Shown one piece after another: positions 13,635 through 60,382 of a stretch of 64,000 nt of DNA (the stretch's first letter is position 1; every line of letters begins with the position of its first letter). The stretch covers positions 1,248,001 through 1,312,000 of the forward strand of contig OY759316.1 of the NCBI GenBank assembly GCA_963662275.1. Reading direction: 5' to 3'. The DNA comes from Candidatus Cloacimonadales bacterium. Its GTDB lineage: Bacteria > Cloacimonadota > Cloacimonadia > Cloacimonadales > DAONDQ01. Under the pieces are notes generated by a model that saw nothing but the letters and a program-made list of their open reading frames with translations, was not told the origin of the DNA and did no database searches. The translations under genes and the position numbers were made by a program.

Positions 13635-14240
13635 CTAGATGATGGAAAGCTTACTAATGTGATCGTCAGCTAAGGCTTTATCCAAGATGGTTTTGATATA
13701 CGAATCCGTGAATTCTTCTGCAAGGATATCAAAGATCAATTCATCGTGGTATTGACCGGCGACAAAGTAACTGTTTCTCCGTGTACCCACTTGCTTAAAT
13801 CCGCATTTTTCATAGCATCTGATCGCCCGTTTATTGAATGCGACAACATGCAGAGATATGTTATTCAGGTTCAAGATATGAAAACCGAAATCCAAAACCA
13901 GTTTCACAGCTTCCGTTCCGAACCCTGCATTCCAATAATTGCGATCCCCGATAAAGATACCAAAGGTAGCTTTACGATTGATGGCATCAATACTGAATAG
14001 CCCGGTACCTCCAATAGGTTTGCCTGTTTCCTTATCGACAATGGCAAAATTATAACTGTTACCTGTGGCGTATTGATGAAGAATATCGCGTTCCTTCTCC
14101 ATACTGTACACATTGGAGAGAATATCCATACTGATGCATATCTCAGGATCATTGACCCATTCTGCAAAACGTTCATAATCTTCGGGATTGTGCGGAGATA
14201 GGAAGACCCTTTCTCCAGTTAGTTTTTTAAAGTATTTCAT
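13635..14240 (-). CDS. GNAT (RimL/SpeG-like) acetyltransferase
   Basis: GIFIG..YWNAGFGTEA, NKRAIRCYEKCGF. Confidence 0.88.
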   Translation of the reverse strand: MKYFKKLTGERVFLSPHNPEDYERFAEWVNDPEICISMDILSNVYSMEKERDILHQYATGNSYNFAIVDKETGKPIGGTGLFSIDAINRKATFGIFIGDRNYWNAGFGTEAVKLVLDFGFHILNLNNISLHVVAFNKRAIRCYEKCGFKQVGTRRNSYFVAGQYHDELIFDILAEEFTDSYIKTILDKALADDHISKLSII

Positions 14241-14251
14241 ATTTGCCTCTT

Positions 14252-15682
14252 CTATTTCATTATTGCTTGAAATCGTTTTATGGTTTCTTCAGTGCCCAAG
14301 ATATCTAACGCAGTTGGAATATCGGGACCGGATGTCTCACCCCATAAGGCGAGATTGAGTGGCTGGTAATATTGTTTTCCTTTGATCTCCAATTCTTCAA
14401 TTCCTTTGGAGACTAGTTCAGCTAGTTCATCTTTTGTCCAATTGTATTTTATCCTAAGTCGATCACAAAAATAACTTAGCACTTTTTGGCTTGATGCTGA
14501 AGTCAGAAAATCCTTATCTGTTTCCTTGATTTTGGGAAAGATGTAAAATTTAGCAGCATAATCCGTGATCAATGATAGAATGGAAACATAATTGCGTGAT
14601 TTATCGACAACTTTCAGATACTTTCCGTGGTCACTGATATCAAAACCAGCTTCCAAAAAGTAAGTTCTTGAACAATCAGCTATATATTCTAAAGGCAGAC
14701 TGCGAATATATTGACCATTCATCCAATCCAACTTGGTCACATCGAAAATAGCCCCTGCTTTATTTACATGTGCGAAATCAAATTCTGAGATCATTTCTTC
14801 AAGAGAGAAGATTTCCTTATCACCGGCAGGATGCCATCCTAACAAGGCGACAAAATTAATAATAGCTTCCTTGAGATATCCTTTGCTTAGATAGCTTTCT
14901 ACAGCGACATCACCTTGGCGCTTGCTCATCTTGGAACGATCAGTTCCCAATAGCAATGGCAGATGTACCCAGTGGGGGGGTGTCCAACCAAGGCTTTCAT
15001 GCAGGAATATATGTTTTGGTGTGCTGGAAAGCCATTCTTCACCGCGTATGACGTCAGTGATTTCCATGTAATGATCATCAACAACTGCTGCGAGGTGATA
15101 GGTTGGAAAACCGTCAGATTTGATGATAACCTGGTCGTCGATTAAATCCGATTCAATATCCACCCTTCCCCGAATGATATCATCAAATACAAAACTTTGG
15201 TGTTTGGGAACTTTCATGCGGATTACATGCGGTTCACCATTTAAAAGACGCGCTGTTACTTCATCTTTTGATAAACGGGAACAGCGACCGTCATATTTCA
15301 TGTTGTTGTGTGTTCCTACCTGTTCTTCTCGCATTTGATCAAGGGTTTCCTTGGAACAAAAACAATGATAGGCATGTCCTTTCTCAATTAGCTCCAATGC
15401 ATGTTTCATATATAATGGTAATCGTTGTGACTGAAAGTAGGGACCGAATCCGCCATCTTTATGAGGACCTTCATCATAATCAATTCCTAAAGTGGCAAGA
15501 GAGGTGATGAGATTATCTACAGAATCTTCAACTAAACGGGTTTGATCTGTATCTTCAATGCGTAGAACGAAGGTTCCGCCCATCTTACGAGCATAAACAT
15601 AATCATATAGCGCAGTTCTCAGGCTTCCTAAATGCAGATATCCTGTCGGACTAGGGGCAAAACGTACCCTGATTTTTGACAT
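14252..15682 (-). CDS. gltX: Glutamate--tRNA ligase
   Basis: RVRFAPSPTGYLHLG, RIEDTD, KMSKR. Confidence 0.97.
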   Translation of the reverse strand: MSKIRVRFAPSPTGYLHLGSLRTALYDYVYARKMGGTFVLRIEDTDQTRLVEDSVDNLITSLATLGIDYDEGPHKDGGFGPYFQSQRLPLYMKHALELIEKGHAYHCFCSKETLDQMREEQVGTHNNMKYDGRCSRLSKDEVTARLLNGEPHVIRMKVPKHQSFVFDDIIRGRVDIESDLIDDQVIIKSDGFPTYHLAAVVDDHYMEITDVIRGEEWLSSTPKHIFLHESLGWTPPHWVHLPLLLGTDRSKMSKRQGDVAVESYLSKGYLKEAIINFVALLGWHPAGDKEIFSLEEMISEFDFAHVNKAGAIFDVTKLDWMNGQYIRSLPLEYIADCSRTYFLEAGFDISDHGKYLKVVDKSRNYVSILSLITDYAAKFYIFPKIKETDKDFLTSASSQKVLSYFCDRLRIKYNWTKDELAELVSKGIEELEIKGKQYYQPLNLALWGETSGPDIPTALDILGTEETIKRFQAIMK

Positions 15683-15744
15683 CCTGACTCCTGGTGAGTT
15701 TTATTTCAATATTCGATTTGATAATGAATATGTCAATGAATAAG

Positions 15745-15786
15745 GTGACAGGGTACAGGGTATAGGGTACAGGGGACAGGGTACAG
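15745..15786 (+). repeat. Heptamer array (6 units, GGTACAG type)
   Basis: GTGACAG GGTACAG GGTATAG GGTACAG GGGACAG GGTACAG. Confidence 0.85.
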
Positions 15787-15917
15787 GTGTTTTCGTGTGA
15801 GAAATAGTATAGAGTTGCATCGCGATTAATTATCTGGAATGGGGTGGAATAAATATTGACAATGAGTATAGGAAATACAATATATAATTATATGCAATAT
15901 GAAACAGGTGGTATCTT

Positions 15918-17192
15918 ATGGCTCATCATTCAGCTAAATCAGAATATTATCAATTACAGGAACGGTTGAACCGTTTTCCCCAGGGAGCGCCTCCTTCAGA
16001 TACATTATATAAGATTTTACAAATACTTTTCAGCAAAAAGGAAGCAGAACTCGTTTCCCAACTTCCCATTAAGCCTTTTACTGCAATAGATGCTTCTAAA
16101 ATATGGAAGATACCAGTACCTGATTCCCGGAAAGTGCTTAAAGAACTGGCATCACGAGCTATTCTTGTAGATGCAGATTTTAACGGAATCATTTACTATA
16201 CCTTACCTCCACCAATGGCAGGTTTTTTTGAATTCTCCTTGATGCGTGTCCGTGGTGATATCGATCAGAAACTACTTGGAGAGCTTTATTACCAGTATCT
16301 AAATGTGGAAGAAGATTTTATCCGTGATTTGCTCTTGGGCAGTGAAACACGATTAGGTAGAGTCTTTGTTCAGGAAGAAGTACTGAGTAACGACAATGCG
16401 ATACATATCCTTGACTTTGAACGAGCCAGTAATGTGATTCAGACTGCCACTAAAATTGGTATCGGGATGTGTTATTGCCGTCATAAGATGCAGCATGTCG
16501 GCAAAGCATGTGATGCTCCCATGGATATCTGCATGACATTCAATGGAGCCGGTACATCTTTAATCAAAGCTGGATTTGCCAGGCAGGTTGATGTCTCTGA
16601 GGGAATGGAATTGCTGCACCAGGCGTATGAACATAACCTTGTGCAATGTGGTGAAAACGTGCGTCAGGGAGTCAATTTTATCTGCAATTGCTGTAGCTGC
16701 TGTTGTGAATTTCTTGTGAATGCAAAGAAATTTGGTTCGCTGCAGCCCATTCATACATCCAATTTTATTACACAAGCTGATACTTCTGCATGTATCGGGT
16801 GCGGTAAATGCATCAAAGCTTGCCCGATAGAGGCAATTTCCTACCTGAATCCAACCCCGGGGAATAAAGAAAAACCTAAAGTGCAGATTGACAGAGAGAT
16901 TTGTCTTGGCTGCGGAGTCTGCGTTAGAAGCTGTCCTACAAAGGCACTGTCTTTGGAAAGCCGTCCCGAGAGAATCATCACACCTATCAATTCTGTTCAT
17001 CGGGTTGTCCTGATGGCGATAGAAAAAGGTACGTTTCAAAACCTGCTCTTTGATAACCAGGCATTTGCCAGTCACCGTGCTTTAGCAGCCATATTAGGTG
17101 TGATATTGAAGCTTCCACCTGTAAAACAGATAATGGCGAGTAAGCAGATGAAGTCGGTGTATTTGGAGAAGCTGTGCGCGGGGAGAGGGTAA
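15918..17192 (+). CDS. 4Fe-4S dicluster-binding protein
   Basis: CIGCGKCIKACP, CLGCGVCVRSCP, ICNCCSCCC, CYCRH. Confidence 0.88.
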   Translation: MAHHSAKSEYYQLQERLNRFPQGAPPSDTLYKILQILFSKKEAELVSQLPIKPFTAIDASKIWKIPVPDSRKVLKELASRAILVDADFNGIIYYTLPPPMAGFFEFSLMRVRGDIDQKLLGELYYQYLNVEEDFIRDLLLGSETRLGRVFVQEEVLSNDNAIHILDFERASNVIQTATKIGIGMCYCRHKMQHVGKACDAPMDICMTFNGAGTSLIKAGFARQVDVSEGMELLHQAYEHNLVQCGENVRQGVNFICNCCSCCCEFLVNAKKFGSLQPIHTSNFITQADTSACIGCGKCIKACPIEAISYLNPTPGNKEKPKVQIDREICLGCGVCVRSCPTKALSLESRPERIITPINSVHRVVLMAIEKGTFQNLLFDNQAFASHRALAAILGVILKLPPVKQIMASKQMKSVYLEKLCAGRG

Positions 17193-17194
17193 AG

Positions 17195-17243
17195 GGGACA
17201 GCGTACAGGGTACAGCGGACAGGGTATAGGGTACAGGGGATAG
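17195..17243 (+). repeat. Heptamer array upstream of four-helix-bundle gene 1 (7 units)
   Basis: GGGACAG CGTACAG GGTACAG CGGACAG GGTATAG GGTACAG GGGATAG; reverse complement of the downstream array. Confidence 0.9.
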
Positions 17244-17358
17244 GGGGGGAAAGGGAAATATAGGGGATACAGTTTTTAATTAAGAAAATAATATTTGACA
17301 TATTCTCAATAAATACAGTTCTTAGTGATAACTTTATTCTTAGGGTTTAGGAGGATTT

Positions 17359-17721
17359 ATGCCGGTGCAAAGCTATAAGGAGTTGATCGTTTGGCAAAAA
17401 GCAATGGATTTGGTAGTAGAAGTGTATAAGCTTAGCAGAAGCTTTCCGAAAGATGAGTTATACTCTCTTACTAACCAAATACGAAGAGCTGTTACATCAG
17501 TTCCATCAAATATTGCAGAAGGTTGGGGAAGAAATTCCAGAGCTGAATATCTTCATTTCATATCTATTGCAAAAGGGTCATTGGCTGAAGTTGAAACGCA
17601 ATTACTTGTTGCATTAAGATTGCAATTCATTGACGAACAGCAAATTAATGCTTCATTAAATCTTCGTGAAGAGGTTGGCAAGATGCTATTTGCCTTATAC
17701 GCGAAACTCTCTTCTTCTTAA
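17359..17721 (+). CDS. Four helix bundle protein (23S rRNA-IVP / Avd-like family)
   Basis: LIVWQKAMDL..YKLS..FPKDE.Y.LTNQIRRA..SVPSNIAEG.GR...GSLAE.ETQ; AGGAGG RBS. Confidence 0.93.
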   Translation: MPVQSYKELIVWQKAMDLVVEVYKLSRSFPKDELYSLTNQIRRAVTSVPSNIAEGWGRNSRAEYLHFISIAKGSLAEVETQLLVALRLQFIDEQQINASLNLREEVGKMLFALYAKLSSS

Positions 17722-18096
17722 CCCTGTACCCTGTACCCTGTACGCTGTACCCTATACCCTGTACGCTGTACCCTGTACCCTGTACGCTGTACCCTGTACG
17801 CTGTACGCTGTACCCTGTACCCTGTACCCTGTACCCTGTACGCTGTACGCTGTACCCTGTACCCTGTACGCTGTACCCTGTACGCTGTACGCTGTACCCT
17901 GTACCCTGTACCCTGTACCCTGTACGCTGTACCCTGTACCCTGTACCCTGTACGCTGTACGCTGTACCCTGTACGCTGTACGCTGTACGCTGTACGCTGT
18001 ACGCTGTACGCTGTACGCTGTACCCTGTACGCTGTACCCTGTACCCTGTACCCTGTACCCTGTACCCTGTACGCTGTACCCTGTACGCTGTACGCT
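17722..18096 (+). repeat. Tandem 7-bp array, 53 units of CCCTGTA/CGCTGTA
   Basis: Begins at the first base after the stop codon; irregular mix of two variants plus one CCCTATA. Confidence 0.98.
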
Positions 18097-18113
18097 ACTT
18101 CAACGAGGTGAAT

Positions 18114-19064
18114 ATGATAATACCGATTATTTTGTTAATTCTTGGATTTGCACTGTTACTTTTAGGAGCTGATTGGTTAGTCAGAGGTGGTAGTTCCTTA
18201 GCTAAACGGTTTAATGTACCTGAAATTGTCATTGGCTTGACTGTGGTAGCATTCGGTACATCAATGCCTGAACTCATGGTCAATCTGATGTCCAGGCTAA
18301 AAGGCGTCACAGATATTACTTTTGGTGATGCCATCGGTAGTAATAATTTTAATATTCTCATTATCTTAGGGATAACCGCCCTTTTGTGTCCTCTTGTCGT
18401 AAAAAAAGCCACAATTTGGAAGGAAATTCCGTTTGCTCTCTTTGTCGCTCTATTAGTCATGTTCCTGGCAAATGACCAGTGGCTGAATCCCAGAGCTATT
18501 GATATGCTCAGCAGATGGGATGGAATTATCATGTTGGCTTTCTTTGGTCTCTTTCTTATTTATACAGTGCACTTGAGCAAAACAGGAGCAATTGAAGCGT
18601 CTAATGTAAAGGTGTATTCCTTATTTCTTACCATTGGGTTTATCGTTACAGGTATAGTTGGATTGATTGCTGGTGGGAAGGTTGTTATTACCCAGGCTGT
18701 AATCATTGCCGAACAATTTGGTGTTAGTCAAAAAGTCATAGGACTTACGATCGTGGCTGCCGGAACTTCCTTACCTGAACTTGCAACATCAGTCGTCGCT
18801 GCCTTAAAAAAACACCCTGATATTGCCATCGGCAATATCGTCGGTTCCAATATCTTTAATCTCTTATTCATTTTAGGTATCTCATCAACAATCAGTCCAC
18901 TTCCATACAAAATAGCGTTCAACCAGGATTTTACCTTAATGCTTGTTGCTACTACCTTATTGTTCGTCTATATGTTTATCCCAAAGAAACATCGCTTGGA
19001 TAGATGGCAAGGACTCTTGTTTATCCTCATCTATGTGGGATATTGCGTATATTTCCTGAAGTAG
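18114..19064 (+). CDS. Calcium/sodium antiporter (YrbG/CaCA family), copy 1
   Basis: GTSMPEL, GSNNFN, GTSLPEL and GNIVGSNIFN alpha repeats; start could also be GTG 18108. Confidence 0.93.
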   Translation: MIIPIILLILGFALLLLGADWLVRGGSSLAKRFNVPEIVIGLTVVAFGTSMPELMVNLMSRLKGVTDITFGDAIGSNNFNILIILGITALLCPLVVKKATIWKEIPFALFVALLVMFLANDQWLNPRAIDMLSRWDGIIMLAFFGLFLIYTVHLSKTGAIEASNVKVYSLFLTIGFIVTGIVGLIAGGKVVITQAVIIAEQFGVSQKVIGLTIVAAGTSLPELATSVVAALKKHPDIAIGNIVGSNIFNLLFILGISSTISPLPYKIAFNQDFTLMLVATTLLFVYMFIPKKHRLDRWQGLLFILIYVGYCVYFLK

Positions 19065-19075
19065 GCTGGGGGAAG

Positions 19076-19148
19076 GTGACAGCGTACAGCGGACAGGGAA
19101 TAGGAAGTAGTTAGGTGTTAGGTGTTAGGTGTTAGGTGTCAGGTTCAG
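19076..19148 (+). repeat. Mosaic heptamer array after stop codon
   Basis: GTGACAG CGTACAG CGGACAG GGAATAG gaag TAGTTAG (GTGTTAG)3 GTGTCAG. Confidence 0.88.
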
Positions 19149-19345
19149 AGCAGATGAGCATCATGTAACTATTAACAATCAGATTTCAATACGGCGATGA
19201 GATAAAAGAACACTCGAATCCCAAGATGCAAGGATGAAGATGGTATATTATCTTCTATCTGTTTCCACAGATCTGCATGTCTCATAAACCTACATTCCAT
19301 TTGACACAATTAATTTTTGAAGTATCTTGATACTATGAGGTGTTT

Positions 19346-20296
19346 ATGCTTATACCTATTATTTATCTGATACTTGGCTTTGTATTACTGATTTTAGGAG
19401 CTGATGGACTTGTAAGGGGAGCAAGTTCACTGGCGAAGAGAATCAATGTACCTGAAATTGCCATTGGTTTGACTGTGGTTGCTTTTGGGACATCAACCCC
19501 AGAATTGATCGTGAATATCTTTTCCAGTATCAAGGGTGCTTCAGATATCGCTTTTGGCAATATCATCGGCAGTAATAACTTTAATATCCTGATCATACTT
19601 GGGATTAGTGCTATGATTTGTCCGCTTGATGTTAAGAAAAGCACAATTTGGAAGGAAATTCCTTTTGCTCTATTCGTTGCAATTTTATGCTTGCTCCTGG
19701 TGAATAACAAATGGTTCAATCCCAATGCGATTGATTTGTTGAGCAGATTAGACGGCTTGCTCATGCTGGGATTCTTTGGTTTGTTTCTTCTTTATACATT
19801 GCACTTAAGCAAAACAGGAGCAATTACAGCATCAAATGTAAAGATTTATTCTCTTCTGCTCACAATTGGATTGATAGTAGCTGGCTTTGTCGGTTTGATT
19901 TTTGGAGGGGATTTGGTAGTCAAACAGGCAATCATCATTGCCAAACAATTCGGTATCAGTGAAAAAGTGATTGCTCTTACTATCGTCGCAGCCGGGACTT
20001 CCTTGCCGGAATTGGCAACATCAGCAGTGGCAGCTTTTAAGAAACACCCCGATATTGCCATCGGCAACATCGTCGGTTCCAATATCTTCAATCTATTGCT
20101 GATACTAGGTGTTTCCGCTTTGATTAACCCACCTTTGTATAAAACATCCTTCAACATAGATTTTTACTTGATGATTTTCTCTACTGCCCTGTTATTCGCT
20201 TATATGTTCATTGCTCGGAAACACCGTTTGGATAGATGGCAAGGCGTTTTATTCATCCTGATCTATGTTGTTTATGTGGTTTTTCTACTGAAGTAG
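19346..20296 (+). CDS. Calcium/sodium antiporter (YrbG/CaCA family), copy 2
   Basis: Colinear, same-length paralog of copy 1; start could also be GTG 19340. Confidence 0.93.
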   Translation: MLIPIIYLILGFVLLILGADGLVRGASSLAKRINVPEIAIGLTVVAFGTSTPELIVNIFSSIKGASDIAFGNIIGSNNFNILIILGISAMICPLDVKKSTIWKEIPFALFVAILCLLLVNNKWFNPNAIDLLSRLDGLLMLGFFGLFLLYTLHLSKTGAITASNVKIYSLLLTIGLIVAGFVGLIFGGDLVVKQAIIIAKQFGISEKVIALTIVAAGTSLPELATSAVAAFKKHPDIAIGNIVGSNIFNLLLILGVSALINPPLYKTSFNIDFYLMIFSTALLFAYMFIARKHRLDRWQGVLFILIYVVYVVFLLK

Positions 20297-20306
20297 GTTG
20301 CAGAAG

Positions 20307-20440
20307 GTAACAGCGTACAGCGTACAGCGTACAGGGAATAGGGATTAGGGAATAGGGAATAGGGAATAGGGATTAGGGAATAGGGATTAGGGAATAGGAA
20401 GTAGTTAGTAGTTAGTAGTTAGTGAGGTGTTAGGTGTTAG
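20307..20440 (+). repeat. Mosaic heptamer array after stop codon
   Basis: GTAACAG (CGTACAG)3 (GGAWTAG)9 gaag (TAGTTAG)3 tgag (GTGTTAG)2. Confidence 0.92.
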
Positions 20441-20456
20441 TGAGGAACGGGATTGA

Positions 20457-20650
20457 AATCCCCCCTTGAGAAGGGGGGTAGGGGGGTCTTTTTCTCTGAG
20501 CTGGGACTTGATACATGAAACCTGAAACCTGACCTTCCTTGAGTAGGAGGTGAGTTGTATGGAAATTCGTCCTCAATCCCCCCTTGAGAAGGGGGGTAGG
20601 GGGGTCTTTTTCTCCGAGCTAGTACCTGACACCTGAAACCTCACCCCTGT
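20457..20650 (+). repeat. Direct duplication of a C/G-rich hairpin repeat, each copy followed by C-rich heptamers
   Basis: AATCCCCCCTTGAGAAGGGGGGTAGGGGGGTCTTTTTCTCYGAGCT at ~20457 and ~20574, then CTGAAAC/CTGACAC units. Confidence 0.85.
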
Positions 20651-20726
20651 ATTCCAGGTTTTTCTACATTTAACATCAGATAAATATTGACTGTATTTCC
20701 GCATATACTTACTTATTATTTAGGCG

Positions 20727-21566
20727 GTGTATATGCGAATAATACATCTGATTCCCCTGTTGGGCGTTCTATTCCTTACCGGTTGTGCGACAGCAGATTT
20801 ATCAATCCTGGATAATGCTGTTCCTCTGAAAGCCAAACAATTACAAATCACGGAATATCAGTCTTTGGGCATAGATGCATTTACCTTAGCAGGACAAGTT
20901 CCTGACACACTTGGTTTTGGTGCTATTTCCAAAATCAATCAGCCCTATATTGGATGTTTAAGTGGAATTCAAGTCGGTCTTGGTTTGGGGAAAGACATGG
21001 AAATAGATACAAAGTTGTCTGGTGGTCATGAACCTATTGGAGAAGCATTTCTCATTGCCTATCAGATCAGCATGAAATATCGTCTTTACCATCCTGAACA
21101 GAATGTTTCAATTGCTGTGATGCCTGGTCTCAAGTTTCAAAAGTGTACTGGTGTTGAACTACCTGAACCTCAACTGCTTGGGCATGCTGATATGTATTAT
21201 GATGCTTCTATTCATACTATCGAGATGCCCATAATCATCTCTTGGAAAACGAAGAGCAAATACCCGTTTAATCCATTACCCGGGAAGTATCCATTTCTCC
21301 ATTCCATCATAACAAGGGTAAGTTACGATAGAATAGCGATTGACTATTGGCATTATGTGAATCCAGATAATGAAATTAGAAGGCAGAAAGATGTAAATAC
21401 TTGGAGGGTTGGTTTACTTTATAATCTGGCACTGCCCAATTGGTTATCAATATCGACCTTGAGTGTGACTTGTGGAGTTGAGATCAGTCCCTTGAACTAC
21501 AGTAATGTGAATCTCATACCTGTCATTGCCGTAGGCATGAGATTTCCGCAAAGATATGATTATTAG
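20727..21566 (+). CDS. Hypothetical lipoprotein
   Basis: Lipobox LTGC; 279-aa ORF. Confidence 0.7.
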   Translation: MYMRIIHLIPLLGVLFLTGCATADLSILDNAVPLKAKQLQITEYQSLGIDAFTLAGQVPDTLGFGAISKINQPYIGCLSGIQVGLGLGKDMEIDTKLSGGHEPIGEAFLIAYQISMKYRLYHPEQNVSIAVMPGLKFQKCTGVELPEPQLLGHADMYYDASIHTIEMPIIISWKTKSKYPFNPLPGKYPFLHSIITRVSYDRIAIDYWHYVNPDNEIRRQKDVNTWRVGLLYNLALPNWLSISTLSVTCGVEISPLNYSNVNLIPVIAVGMRFPQRYDY

Positions 21567-21804
21567 CAGGATAGGGGTTTGCGGTAGTAAACCCGTCTTC
21601 TTTTCTCTTCTGCTCTGAACTGTTCTCTGTACGCCTGTTGTCACAATTGGACTAAGATATTATGGACATCATGATAAGTTGTCTTATTAGATAAGGCATC
21701 GATAGTCAAATCTCCACATATTTACATTCTTCATTATATTCCAAAACTAATATCCCAAAACTAAAATAACATATGAACTTGCACTTCTTTGCCCTTAATT
21801 ACTA

Positions 21805-21910
21805 CCTGTTTCATACCAGTTTGATTCCTGTTTCATACCAGTTTCATTCCTGTTTCGCGAGACAGGAAAGAGATTGGATTGGGATTGGTATGGGATTGGA
21901 TATGGATTGG
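21805..21910. repeat. Inverted 11-bp periodic arrays
   Basis: (CCWGTTTSATW)4 CCTGTTTC-GC-GAGACAGG (NNNNGATTGG-type)4. Confidence 0.75.
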
Positions 21911-21934
21911 TAGTATCTTTGCGGTTTATTTGTT

Positions 21935-22016
21935 GAGTAAGACTCCGATCTTACTGCGTTGAGTATGACTCCGATCTTACTTGATTCCTTTCGTGGAGTA
22001 GGATTCCGATCCTACT
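21935..22016 (+). repeat. Three GTAG-type REP-like palindromes
   Basis: GAGTAAGACTCCGATCTTACT, GAGTATGACTCCGATCTTACT, GAGTAGGATTCCGATCCTACT. Confidence 0.75.
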
Positions 22017-57621: not shown

Positions 57622-57629
57622 GGCAGAAG

Positions 57630-57695
57630 GTGCTAGGGGTTAGGTGTTAGGTGTTAGGTGCTAGGTGCTAGGTGCTAGGGGTTAGGTGTTAGTGA
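57630..57695 (+). repeat. Heptamer array (9 units GTGYTAG/GGGTTAG) at the 3' side of four-helix-bundle gene 2
   Basis: Inverted relative to 58106-58439; inner end TTAGTGA. Confidence 0.93.
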
Positions 57696-57713
57696 CAAGT
57701 ATAATTATCAGTA

Positions 57714-58076
57714 TTAAATATTGTTAAGCTTGATTCGCAATGTTGCTAGCATCTTGCTAATTTCATTTTGTAGATCAATGGAAGTTTTTGCTTGTCTTTC
57801 TGTAATGTATTGAAGACGAATTGCTAAAATGATTTGCGTTTCTGTTTCTGCCAGCGAGCCTTGTGCTATAGAAATGAAATGCAGATATTCAGCTTTGGAA
57901 TTCCTACCTTTACCTTCTGCTATATTGGATGGAATTGATACTACTGCTCTGCGAATTTGATTTGTAAGACAATACAATTCGTCATTTGGAAAATTCTTGC
58001 TCAATTGATATATTTCAACAGTTAAGTCCATTGATTTCTGCCATACAATCAAATCTTGATAACTTTTTACAATCAT
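57714..58076 (-). CDS. Four helix bundle protein (23S rRNA-IVP / Avd-like family), copy 2
   Basis: 79/120 identical to 17359-17721 by manual count; AGGAGG RBS. Confidence 0.93.
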   Translation of the reverse strand: MIVKSYQDLIVWQKSMDLTVEIYQLSKNFPNDELYCLTNQIRRAVVSIPSNIAEGKGRNSKAEYLHFISIAQGSLAETETQIILAIRLQYITERQAKTSIDLQNEISKMLATLRIKLNNI

Positions 58077-58105
58077 CTTTCCCTCCTATTATTGTTTCCT
58101 AATCT

Positions 58106-58439
58106 TCACTAACCCCTAACACCTAGCACCTAGCACCTAGCACCTAGCACCTAGCACCTAGCACCTAGCACCTAGCACCTAGCACCTAACACCTAGCACC
58201 TAGCACCTAACACCTAGCACCTAGCACCTAACACCTAGCACCTAGCACCTAACACCTAGCACCTAGCACCTAGCACCTAACACCTAGCACCTAACACCTA
58301 GCACCTAGCACCTAACACCTAGCACCTAGCACCTAACACCTAGCACCTAACACCTAACACCTAACACCTAACACCTAACACCTAACACCTAGCACCTAAC
58401 ACCTAGCACCTAGCACCTAACACCTAGCACCTAACACCT
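58106..58439 (-). repeat. Tandem 7-bp array, 46 full units mostly CACCTAG/CACCTAA
   Basis: 58113-58434 = 46 x 7 bp; begins after add stop + CAGAAG on the minus strand. Confidence 0.98.
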
Positions 58440-60313: not shown

Positions 60314-60382
60314 CATTACGGTAGCATTACGGTTTTTTACCGTAATGCTACCGTAATGCTACCGTATTGCTACCGTAATGCT
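60314..60382. repeat. Inverted 11-bp arrays
   Basis: CATTACGGTAG-type unit x2 facing CTACCGTAATG-type unit x4. Confidence 0.88.

Follow-up and report, generated by a model that had tools for sequence, protein, structure and literature searches.

The cassette and its closest described relatives

Four-helix-bundle proteins of the TIGR02436/PF05635 family were first found in excised intervening sequences (IVSs) of 23S rRNA, and the homology of PF05635 to Avd of diversity-generating retroelements (DGRs) has been published (PMC10053308; 10.1101/2023.10.23.563531); a first-pass annotation of the DNA studied here had put forward both points, and the literature backs them. In Coxiella burnetii the helix 45 IVS with S23p carries tandem GACAGAT heptamers, variable in number, upstream of an open reading frame (ORF) described as decaying, and has a terminal stem; cleavage by RNase III has been shown, at the first heptamer (Warrier et al. 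2016, PMC4990558). Heptameric intergenic repeats with stop-codon bias and inverted pairs are described for Xanthomonas (GGGAATC) and Nostoc (GGGGA(C/T)T) (Rehm et al. 2015, PMC4692102), and TAACTGA repeats for Beggiatoaceae, with no transfer mechanism known (MacGregor 2015, PMC4679880). Here we describe a cassette in a 64,000-nucleotide stretch of a Candidatus Cloacimonadales genome (contig OY759316.1, positions 1,248,001 to 1,312,000; hereafter, the window), in which a gene of this family is enclosed by two complementary heptamer arrays, or arms. Below we demonstrate how the cassette is laid out, that its two arms match at each locus, that its position differs between relatives, that the ORF is under selection and that the cassette follows a host stop codon. 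The phenomenon is real, general and poorly explained, and the cassette probably represents a widespread class of small, transposase-free selfish cassettes of IVS-like build, placed at gene junctions in mRNA.

The cassette comprises the following features, in window coordinates; gene calls are simple ORF calls rather than the output of a gene finder.

17186..17245, + strand: 5' arm, a purine-rich heptamer array (AG[CG]GTAC type), from the sequence and a repeat scan
17246..17358, + strand: A+T-rich leader, with a ribosome-binding site, AGGAGG, at 17349-17354
17359..17721, + strand: four-helix-bundle gene, 120 aa, TIGR02436/PF05635, from profile matches and as a homologue of 2GSC and 2RLD
17722..18096, + strand: 3' arm, 53 units of [CG]CTGTAC, reverse complement of the 5' arm, from a repeat scan

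The 5' arm starts at the stop codon of the preceding Fe-S protein gene, which it overlaps, and has clean units at about 17198-17238 and decayed inner units. The 3' arm begins at 17722, immediately past the TAA of the four-helix-bundle gene, consists of 29 CCTGTAC, 23 GCTGTAC and one CCTATAC unit, and ends some 10 bases before the ribosome-binding site of an antiporter gene. The repeat scan confirmed the array coordinates of the first-pass annotation, including the 53 units from the first base after the stop, and its alignment of 17202-17236 with the reverse complement of 17745-17779 proved exact, with 33 of 35 positions identical. Less can be made of its remark that the rare variant GGTATAG/CTATACC falls in register between the arms: registers without the variant score equally, and the variant is present in 7 of the 41 arrays of this heptamer type (15 variant versus 315 regular units). 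The 21-mer around GGTATAG occurs five times in the genome, once in the array at 15740-15787.

A long stem enclosing the gene is predicted for this region. The predicted fold of 17170-17830 has an energy of −245.8 kcal/mol (z −11.7), and none of 20 shuffled sequences folds as low. The 3' arm is not predicted to pair exclusively with its own 5' arm; the calculated duplex energies are −115.3 kcal/mol with the latter, −128.8 with an array near 20310 and −85.6 with an array near 15740.

The 120-residue protein scores 134.2 bits against TIGR02436 (cut-off 24) and 143.1 bits against PF05635 (cut-off 33.8), and its nearest solved relatives are 2GSC (E 9.8e-23) and 2RLD, with five chains apiece. A structure model from the single sequence was poor (predicted local distance difference test score, pLDDT, 49.7). 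The ORF is under purifying selection, with nonsynonymous and synonymous divergence (dN and dS) of 0.11 and 1.06 between the two closest paralogues in this genome; for the copy at this locus, dN is 0.26–0.30 and dS is saturated. The cassette has no recognisable transposase or reverse transcriptase, the sole ORF called between the arms matching PF05635 and, weakly, bAvd. A consensus scan found no promoter-like site in the leader, and the scan of the locus for promoters and terminators returned three promoter-like sites versus 2.0 expected and no terminator.

In comparison to the 23S rRNA IVSs, the cassette has the same protein family, terminal inverted repeats able to form a stem, heptamers upstream of the ORF and signs of horizontal acquisition. 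It differs in its position between protein genes, in its far longer arms (53 units) and in having an ORF under selection, and we do not count it as a member of that class because it is not located in rRNA. No Rfam match was found in 14000-22000, and none of 162 family loci contained a 23S rRNA match. The three 23S rRNA genes lie elsewhere in this genome, G000 (G000:C1:2519154-2522281, 2978182-2981309 and 3119041-3122168); they measure 3128 bases against a model of 2925 positions and contain no period-7 arrays.

With Avd of DGRs the protein shares homology and a putative pentameric four-helix-bundle barrel, and Avd is described as binding RNA that flanks its template. Unlike Avd, it falls below the Avd family cut-offs (NF033474, 40.3 bits against 80, E 3e-10; PF22296, 29.3 against 40) and has no reverse transcriptase gene nearby; membership of a DGR was rejected on these scores and on the distance to the nearest RVT_1 match, 184 kb. 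MITEs, the miniature transposable elements with inverted repeats, and repetitive extragenic palindromes (REPs) or their hairpin-forming doublets (REPINs) with their transposase RAYT, are intergenic and consist of few gene-bearing and many gene-less copies with inverted ends. The cassette is unlike them in that its ends are tandem arrays that change in length and sequence and its gene is no known nuclease or transposase; an insertion sequence or an autonomous partner of MITEs was rejected since no transposase is encoded.

Inverted arms and change of position in relatives

The proposal of a repeat-delimited cassette or minimal mobile unit was accompanied, in the first-pass annotation, by the suggestion that arms be compared between family genes and other genes. 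An arm score was defined as the smaller tandem-unit count of the two sides (inverted, period 7). Of the six TIGR02436 matches in this genome, four are intact and two partial; each is preceded by a purine-rich array and followed by the reverse complement of that array, with four heptamer types across the loci. Scores of at least 2 were reached by 6/6 family matches and 22/3140 other ORFs, and scores of at least 3 by 4/6 and 2/3140, respectively. A cross-phylum set of 79 loci was drawn from the best 80 of 551 confirmed stretches and includes Acidobacteriota, Planctomycetota, Bacillota, Bacteroidota, Proteobacteria, Cyanobacteria and others. Among the 73 of these loci with at least 150 bases on each side, 54 scored at least 2 and 29 at least 3. 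The corresponding controls gave 0/256 for shifted windows, 11/73 for direct orientation, 5/73 for period 6 and 0/73 for period 8; a period-5 control was discarded as unusable because one-mismatch 5-mers match by chance. The proposal is thus supported, with arms that are enriched at family genes, matched within loci and different between them, and a gene that sits at other sites in the congener described below.

At the level of the order, the family is present in 41 of 61 genomes. From loci chosen among the family-bearing relatives 87 copies were taken, 77 of them with full flanks; arm scores of at least 2 were found for 42 and of at least 3 for 26, so that arms are frequent and not universal. 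A tree was calculated for 62 clear-armed copies (61 with at least 3 units and one 13/2 locus), and heptamer distance correlates with protein tree distance (rho 0.43, reached in 0/2000 permutations). Both main protein clades coexist in this genome, in G001 and in G017, and the units that accompany one clade are G-rich, those of the second A+T-rich. Among the 29 well-armed cross-phylum copies, 22 start no more than 30 bases from an upstream stop codon in the same orientation, a proximity for which short intergenic spaces account in part. Viral contigs yielded only four family loci.

Several individual loci depart from the common layout. At L183:2800-3360 (also L184) a short-armed four-helix-bundle gene lies in another frame inside a 1327-codon ORF for an Eco57I-type methyltransferase, whose frame is open throughout; the cassette can occupy a protein gene as an overprinted insert. 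At L028 and L150 (G058), copies are flanked by arrays that appear by eye to have period 8. L024 (G012:C4:488371-489129) has two tandem family genes, 97% identical, within one arm pair, in a nearly closed genome that has no RVT_1 match. At G000:C1:2862523-2863129, inverted AAAATTA-type arms surround a broken, 5'-truncated gene from outside the family, which by eye resembles a pyridoxamine-phosphate-oxidase-like protein.

The four-helix-bundle gene changes position between relatives. G001, a genome of the same genus with a mean ortholog identity of about 76% (protein), has nine family matches, seven of which could be anchored and two of which could not. These seven and the four intact genes of this genome, one of them matched by its right neighbour only, make up 11 comparable sites, and at none of them is the family gene shared. 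A lack of arm enrichment and a syntenic, vertically inherited gene without arrays, both named in the first-pass annotation as findings that would speak against mobility, were therefore not what was observed. By eye, the genome lacking the gene has an array at 6 of the 11 filled and unfilled site pairs, four of these arrays being of the other clade's type. Past the stop codon of the Fe-S gene, G001 has an AGAATTA-type array, a TfoX-N gene, further repeats and an assembly gap, and a search with the antiporter of this locus found no match in G001. Neither the family gene nor the antiporter was present in the fetched flanks of any of 80 metagenome loci of the C-terminal part of the Fe-S gene, and 0/68 distinct junctions had a heptamer array. 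G016 has three copies that are 90–93% identical and occupy separate sites, and the flanking sequence they have in common stops in or just beyond the arms.

Arrays without the gene and the explanations weighed

The genome contains 285 period-7 arrays versus none in a block-shuffled genome, and at most 7 arrays for each of periods 5, 6, 8, 9 and 10; this count, together with a fold energy below that of all shuffles, argues that the arms at the locus are not a product of chance. Outside long ORFs lie 244 of the arrays, most of them without a family gene. Their purine-rich strand starts within 30 bases of a same-strand stop codon in 94 of the 244; the opposite polarity gives 13, and the null expectation is 9.3 ± 2.9. 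In 37 cases the array itself includes the stop codon, which follows in part from the make-up of the units, TAA or TAG being present in many of them. Many of the heptamer types have no runs of G, and the arrays of all types have flanking motifs in common, with GCWGAWG on the 5' side of 55/244 (1.7 expected) and GCAGA on the 3' side of 90/244 (6.8 expected). Arrays are clustered: the members of 50 pairs lie no more than 150 bases apart, compared with a null mean of 16 pairs, and 19 of the 50 combine different types. Further, 18 rows of inverted array pairs were found, with the purine arm first in 16; the gene-less pairs enclose non-coding DNA, REP-like palindromes or a gene fragment. In period, in the start of the purine-rich strand near a same-strand stop and in their inverted pairs, the arrays resemble the Xanthomonas and Nostoc repeats. 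The cyanobacterial short tandemly repeated repetitive (STRR) sequences are comparable repeats.

More elaborate arrangements were also seen. At G000:C1:3069733-3070256 five head-to-tail copies of a roughly 70-base unit, in which several heptamer types are combined with a GCAGAGA motif, precede a complementary arm. REP-like palindromes lie in or beside heptamer arrays at 20450-20480 of the window and at G000:C1:3230309-3230717 and 4091246-4091450, so that two repeat systems share sites.

Gene ends were compared between this genome and G001 over 466 orthologous ends, for which 1.19 Mb of the 3.2 Mb of G001 were used. Both genomes have an array at 7 ends, this genome alone at 16, G001 alone at 12 and neither at 431. 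The 7 shared ends compare with 0.9 expected, two of them being the two sides of one junction, and their heptamers differ by a mean of 2.9 bases, as against 3.0 for random pairs. Shared ends with unrelated heptamers, taken with the arrays at unfilled sites, indicate that certain gene ends are hit repeatedly or that arrays are rewritten in place. Across the relatives, at least 15 matches to two array patterns, which cover only some of the heptamers, were counted in 13 of 41 gene-bearing and 0 of 20 gene-free genomes.

If the cassette is a transposase-free selfish element, as we consider probable, its cycle might run as follows. Read-through from the upstream gene would transcribe the cassette, and its arms would pair as a long RNA duplex cut by RNase III, as in the rRNA element of Coxiella, freeing the cassette RNA; a gene for RNase III is present in the genome. 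The neighbouring genes would be spared by such cutting because the arms lie past a stop codon and ahead of the next ribosome-binding site, and an intervening sequence at the level of mRNA, as the first-pass annotation had suggested, is plausible on the predicted fold. The protein would form a pentameric ring like its solved homologues and bind its own repeats as single strands. TRAP, a ring protein that reads RNA repeats, offers an analogy. Together with host enzymes, the protein may copy or recombine the arms into gene ends, favouring places that already bear arrays, and it may act in trans on gene-less arrays, which would be non-autonomous or leftover copies.

A more far-reaching version, which we put forward tentatively and regard as doubtful, is that the protein, as a ring, recognises the heptamer array of its own cassette and guides how such arrays are written or rewritten at host stop codons. 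The cassettes would then be a transposase-free mobile class to which the rRNA intervening sequences with an ORF and the heptamer repeats of cyanobacteria, Xanthomonas and Beggiatoaceae would all trace back, as might Avd. Gene ends that carry unrelated heptamers in the two species would, if this is true, record overwriting in place by the active clade.

Several observations weigh against the selfish-cassette reading. Arms are lacking, by the test used here, in 35/77 order-level and 19/73 cross-phylum copies. Fewer than 5 pattern matches were counted in 20 of the 41 gene-bearing genomes, and copy number and array load are uncorrelated (rho 0.17, p 0.30). The great majority of arrays have no recognisable gene remnant beside them: a tblastn search with 166 family proteins recovered only the four intact genes, a single one of the two remnants already known and a weak match that has no array nearby; the notion that every array is a decayed cassette is therefore unsupported by sequence. 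The copies in the tree and the genomes counted include kin and so do not stand for independent cases, and kinship inflates the correlation between heptamers and proteins. In the methyltransferase-embedded copy, cutting of the mRNA would do harm. The assembly gap in G001, about 0.5 kb downstream of the Fe-S gene, could hide a copy. The first-pass annotation had proposed to look for empty sites in relatives; the gene is missing at the matching G001 sites, and a target-site duplication and a clean, base-precise empty site were not seen by eye, the closest genome being about 76% identical in protein.

Were the arrays instead 3'-end signals kept by the host for mRNA stability or termination, the protein would be their cognate binder under the control of its own arrays, and its movement would be incidental. 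This would suit the many gene-less arrays, their closeness to same-strand stops, the excess of array-bearing ends common to both species and the purifying selection on the ORF, and the Xanthomonas and Nostoc repeats likewise show stop-codon bias and are mostly transcribed (Rehm et al. 2015, PMC4692102). We nevertheless judge it unlikely, given that the family gene is shared at 0/11 sites with the congener, that array-bearing ends are mostly lineage-specific (16/23 here and 12/19 in G001), that heptamers at shared ends are no closer than random pairs and that no match to the family was obtained in 20 of 61 related genomes. The arrays could also be general sites of recombination or cassette assembly at gene ends, loosely similar to integron attC sites, with the four-helix-bundle gene as their commonest passenger. 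The Fe-S gene and both antiporters each have an array on the 3' side, the segment from the Fe-S gene to 20727 is wholly different in G001, where the TfoX-N gene stands between arrays, and both the contents of the gene-less inverted pairs and the clustering of arrays of mixed type are consistent with such a role. It is made decidedly improbable by the rarity of inverted arms of at least 3 units around other ORFs (2/3140, versus 4/6 family matches) and by the way heptamer type follows protein clade, which would not be expected of a neutral passenger unless long linked.

Movement through an RNA intermediate, in which the Avd-like protein recruits a reverse transcriptase in trans that turns the excised cassette RNA into DNA, draws on the weak but real similarity to Avd in both profiles, on the report that the Avd pentamer binds flanking RNA and activates its reverse transcriptase (10.1101/2023.10.23.563531) and on 18 RVT_1 matches in the genome. 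With none near the locus and 7 of 20 gene-bearing genomes yielding no match to RVT_1, among them G040 (2 contigs) and G012 (4 contigs), both 99% complete, supply in trans becomes less likely. One reverse transcriptase query found such a gene at 0/79 homologous loci from the best 80 of 551, RVT_1 is present in 5 of 13 gene-free genomes, and we hold this route to be very unlikely. That the gene merely came to lie between two microsatellites with no relation to each other, in a genome rich in repeats, with 285 arrays and some of the same type nearby, has a negligible probability and is refuted by the arm counts at family genes set against other ORFs and shifted windows; both arms are, moreover, of the same type at each locus.

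The component pieces have been published, and the link between the gene and heptamer arms outside rRNA appears to be new: no paper connecting the two was found in the literature searched, most subscription journals and supplements lying beyond the search. This locus adds a two-genome test in which the same positions bear replaced heptamers, the shared flanking motifs and a test of co-occurrence with reverse transcriptases. It ties together the role of the 23S IVS protein, the excess of 7-base repeats between bacterial genes and the transposase-free movement of IVSs, and this class of cassettes may be the origin of the long-unexplained 7-base repeats in bacterial genomes. The protein has a specific candidate ligand in its own heptamer array, with the arrays of other clades as built-in controls, and each open question is therefore directly testable. 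Should the cassette move by a route of its own, it would represent a mode of DNA mobility absent from the searchable literature.

Neighbouring genes and other repeats

The surroundings of the cassette and the remainder of the window contain the following related features.

15740..15787, + strand: gene-less array of the heptamer type of the cassette arms, upstream of the Fe-S gene; the 3' arm of the cassette could pair with it instead
15918..17192, + strand: upstream host gene, outside the cassette, for a 424-aa protein with a C-terminal 4Fe-4S ferredoxin domain
18108..19064, + strand: downstream host gene, outside the cassette, for a calcium/sodium antiporter (TIGR00367)
20310..20446, + strand: gene-less compound array of three heptamer types in succession, beyond the stop codon that ends the second antiporter gene; a REP-like palindrome comes next
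57628..58439, − strand: second intact cassette in the window, with the gene at 57714-58076 (−) and AGGTGYT arms of 46 and 9 units

Repeats of period 11 form 159 arrays in the genome, 135 of them outside ORFs, with few unit types (for example at 21803-21856 and 60338-60382 of the window). No inverted pairs of these arrays were found within 1.5 kb, and they look like a system separate from the heptamers. The antiporter gene at 18108..19064 has a 74% identical paralogue at 19340-20296, with an array in between. Throughout this tandem (18108-20296) a heptamer array starts within 15 bases past each stop codon, and the arrays may have driven the duplication of the antiporter genes.

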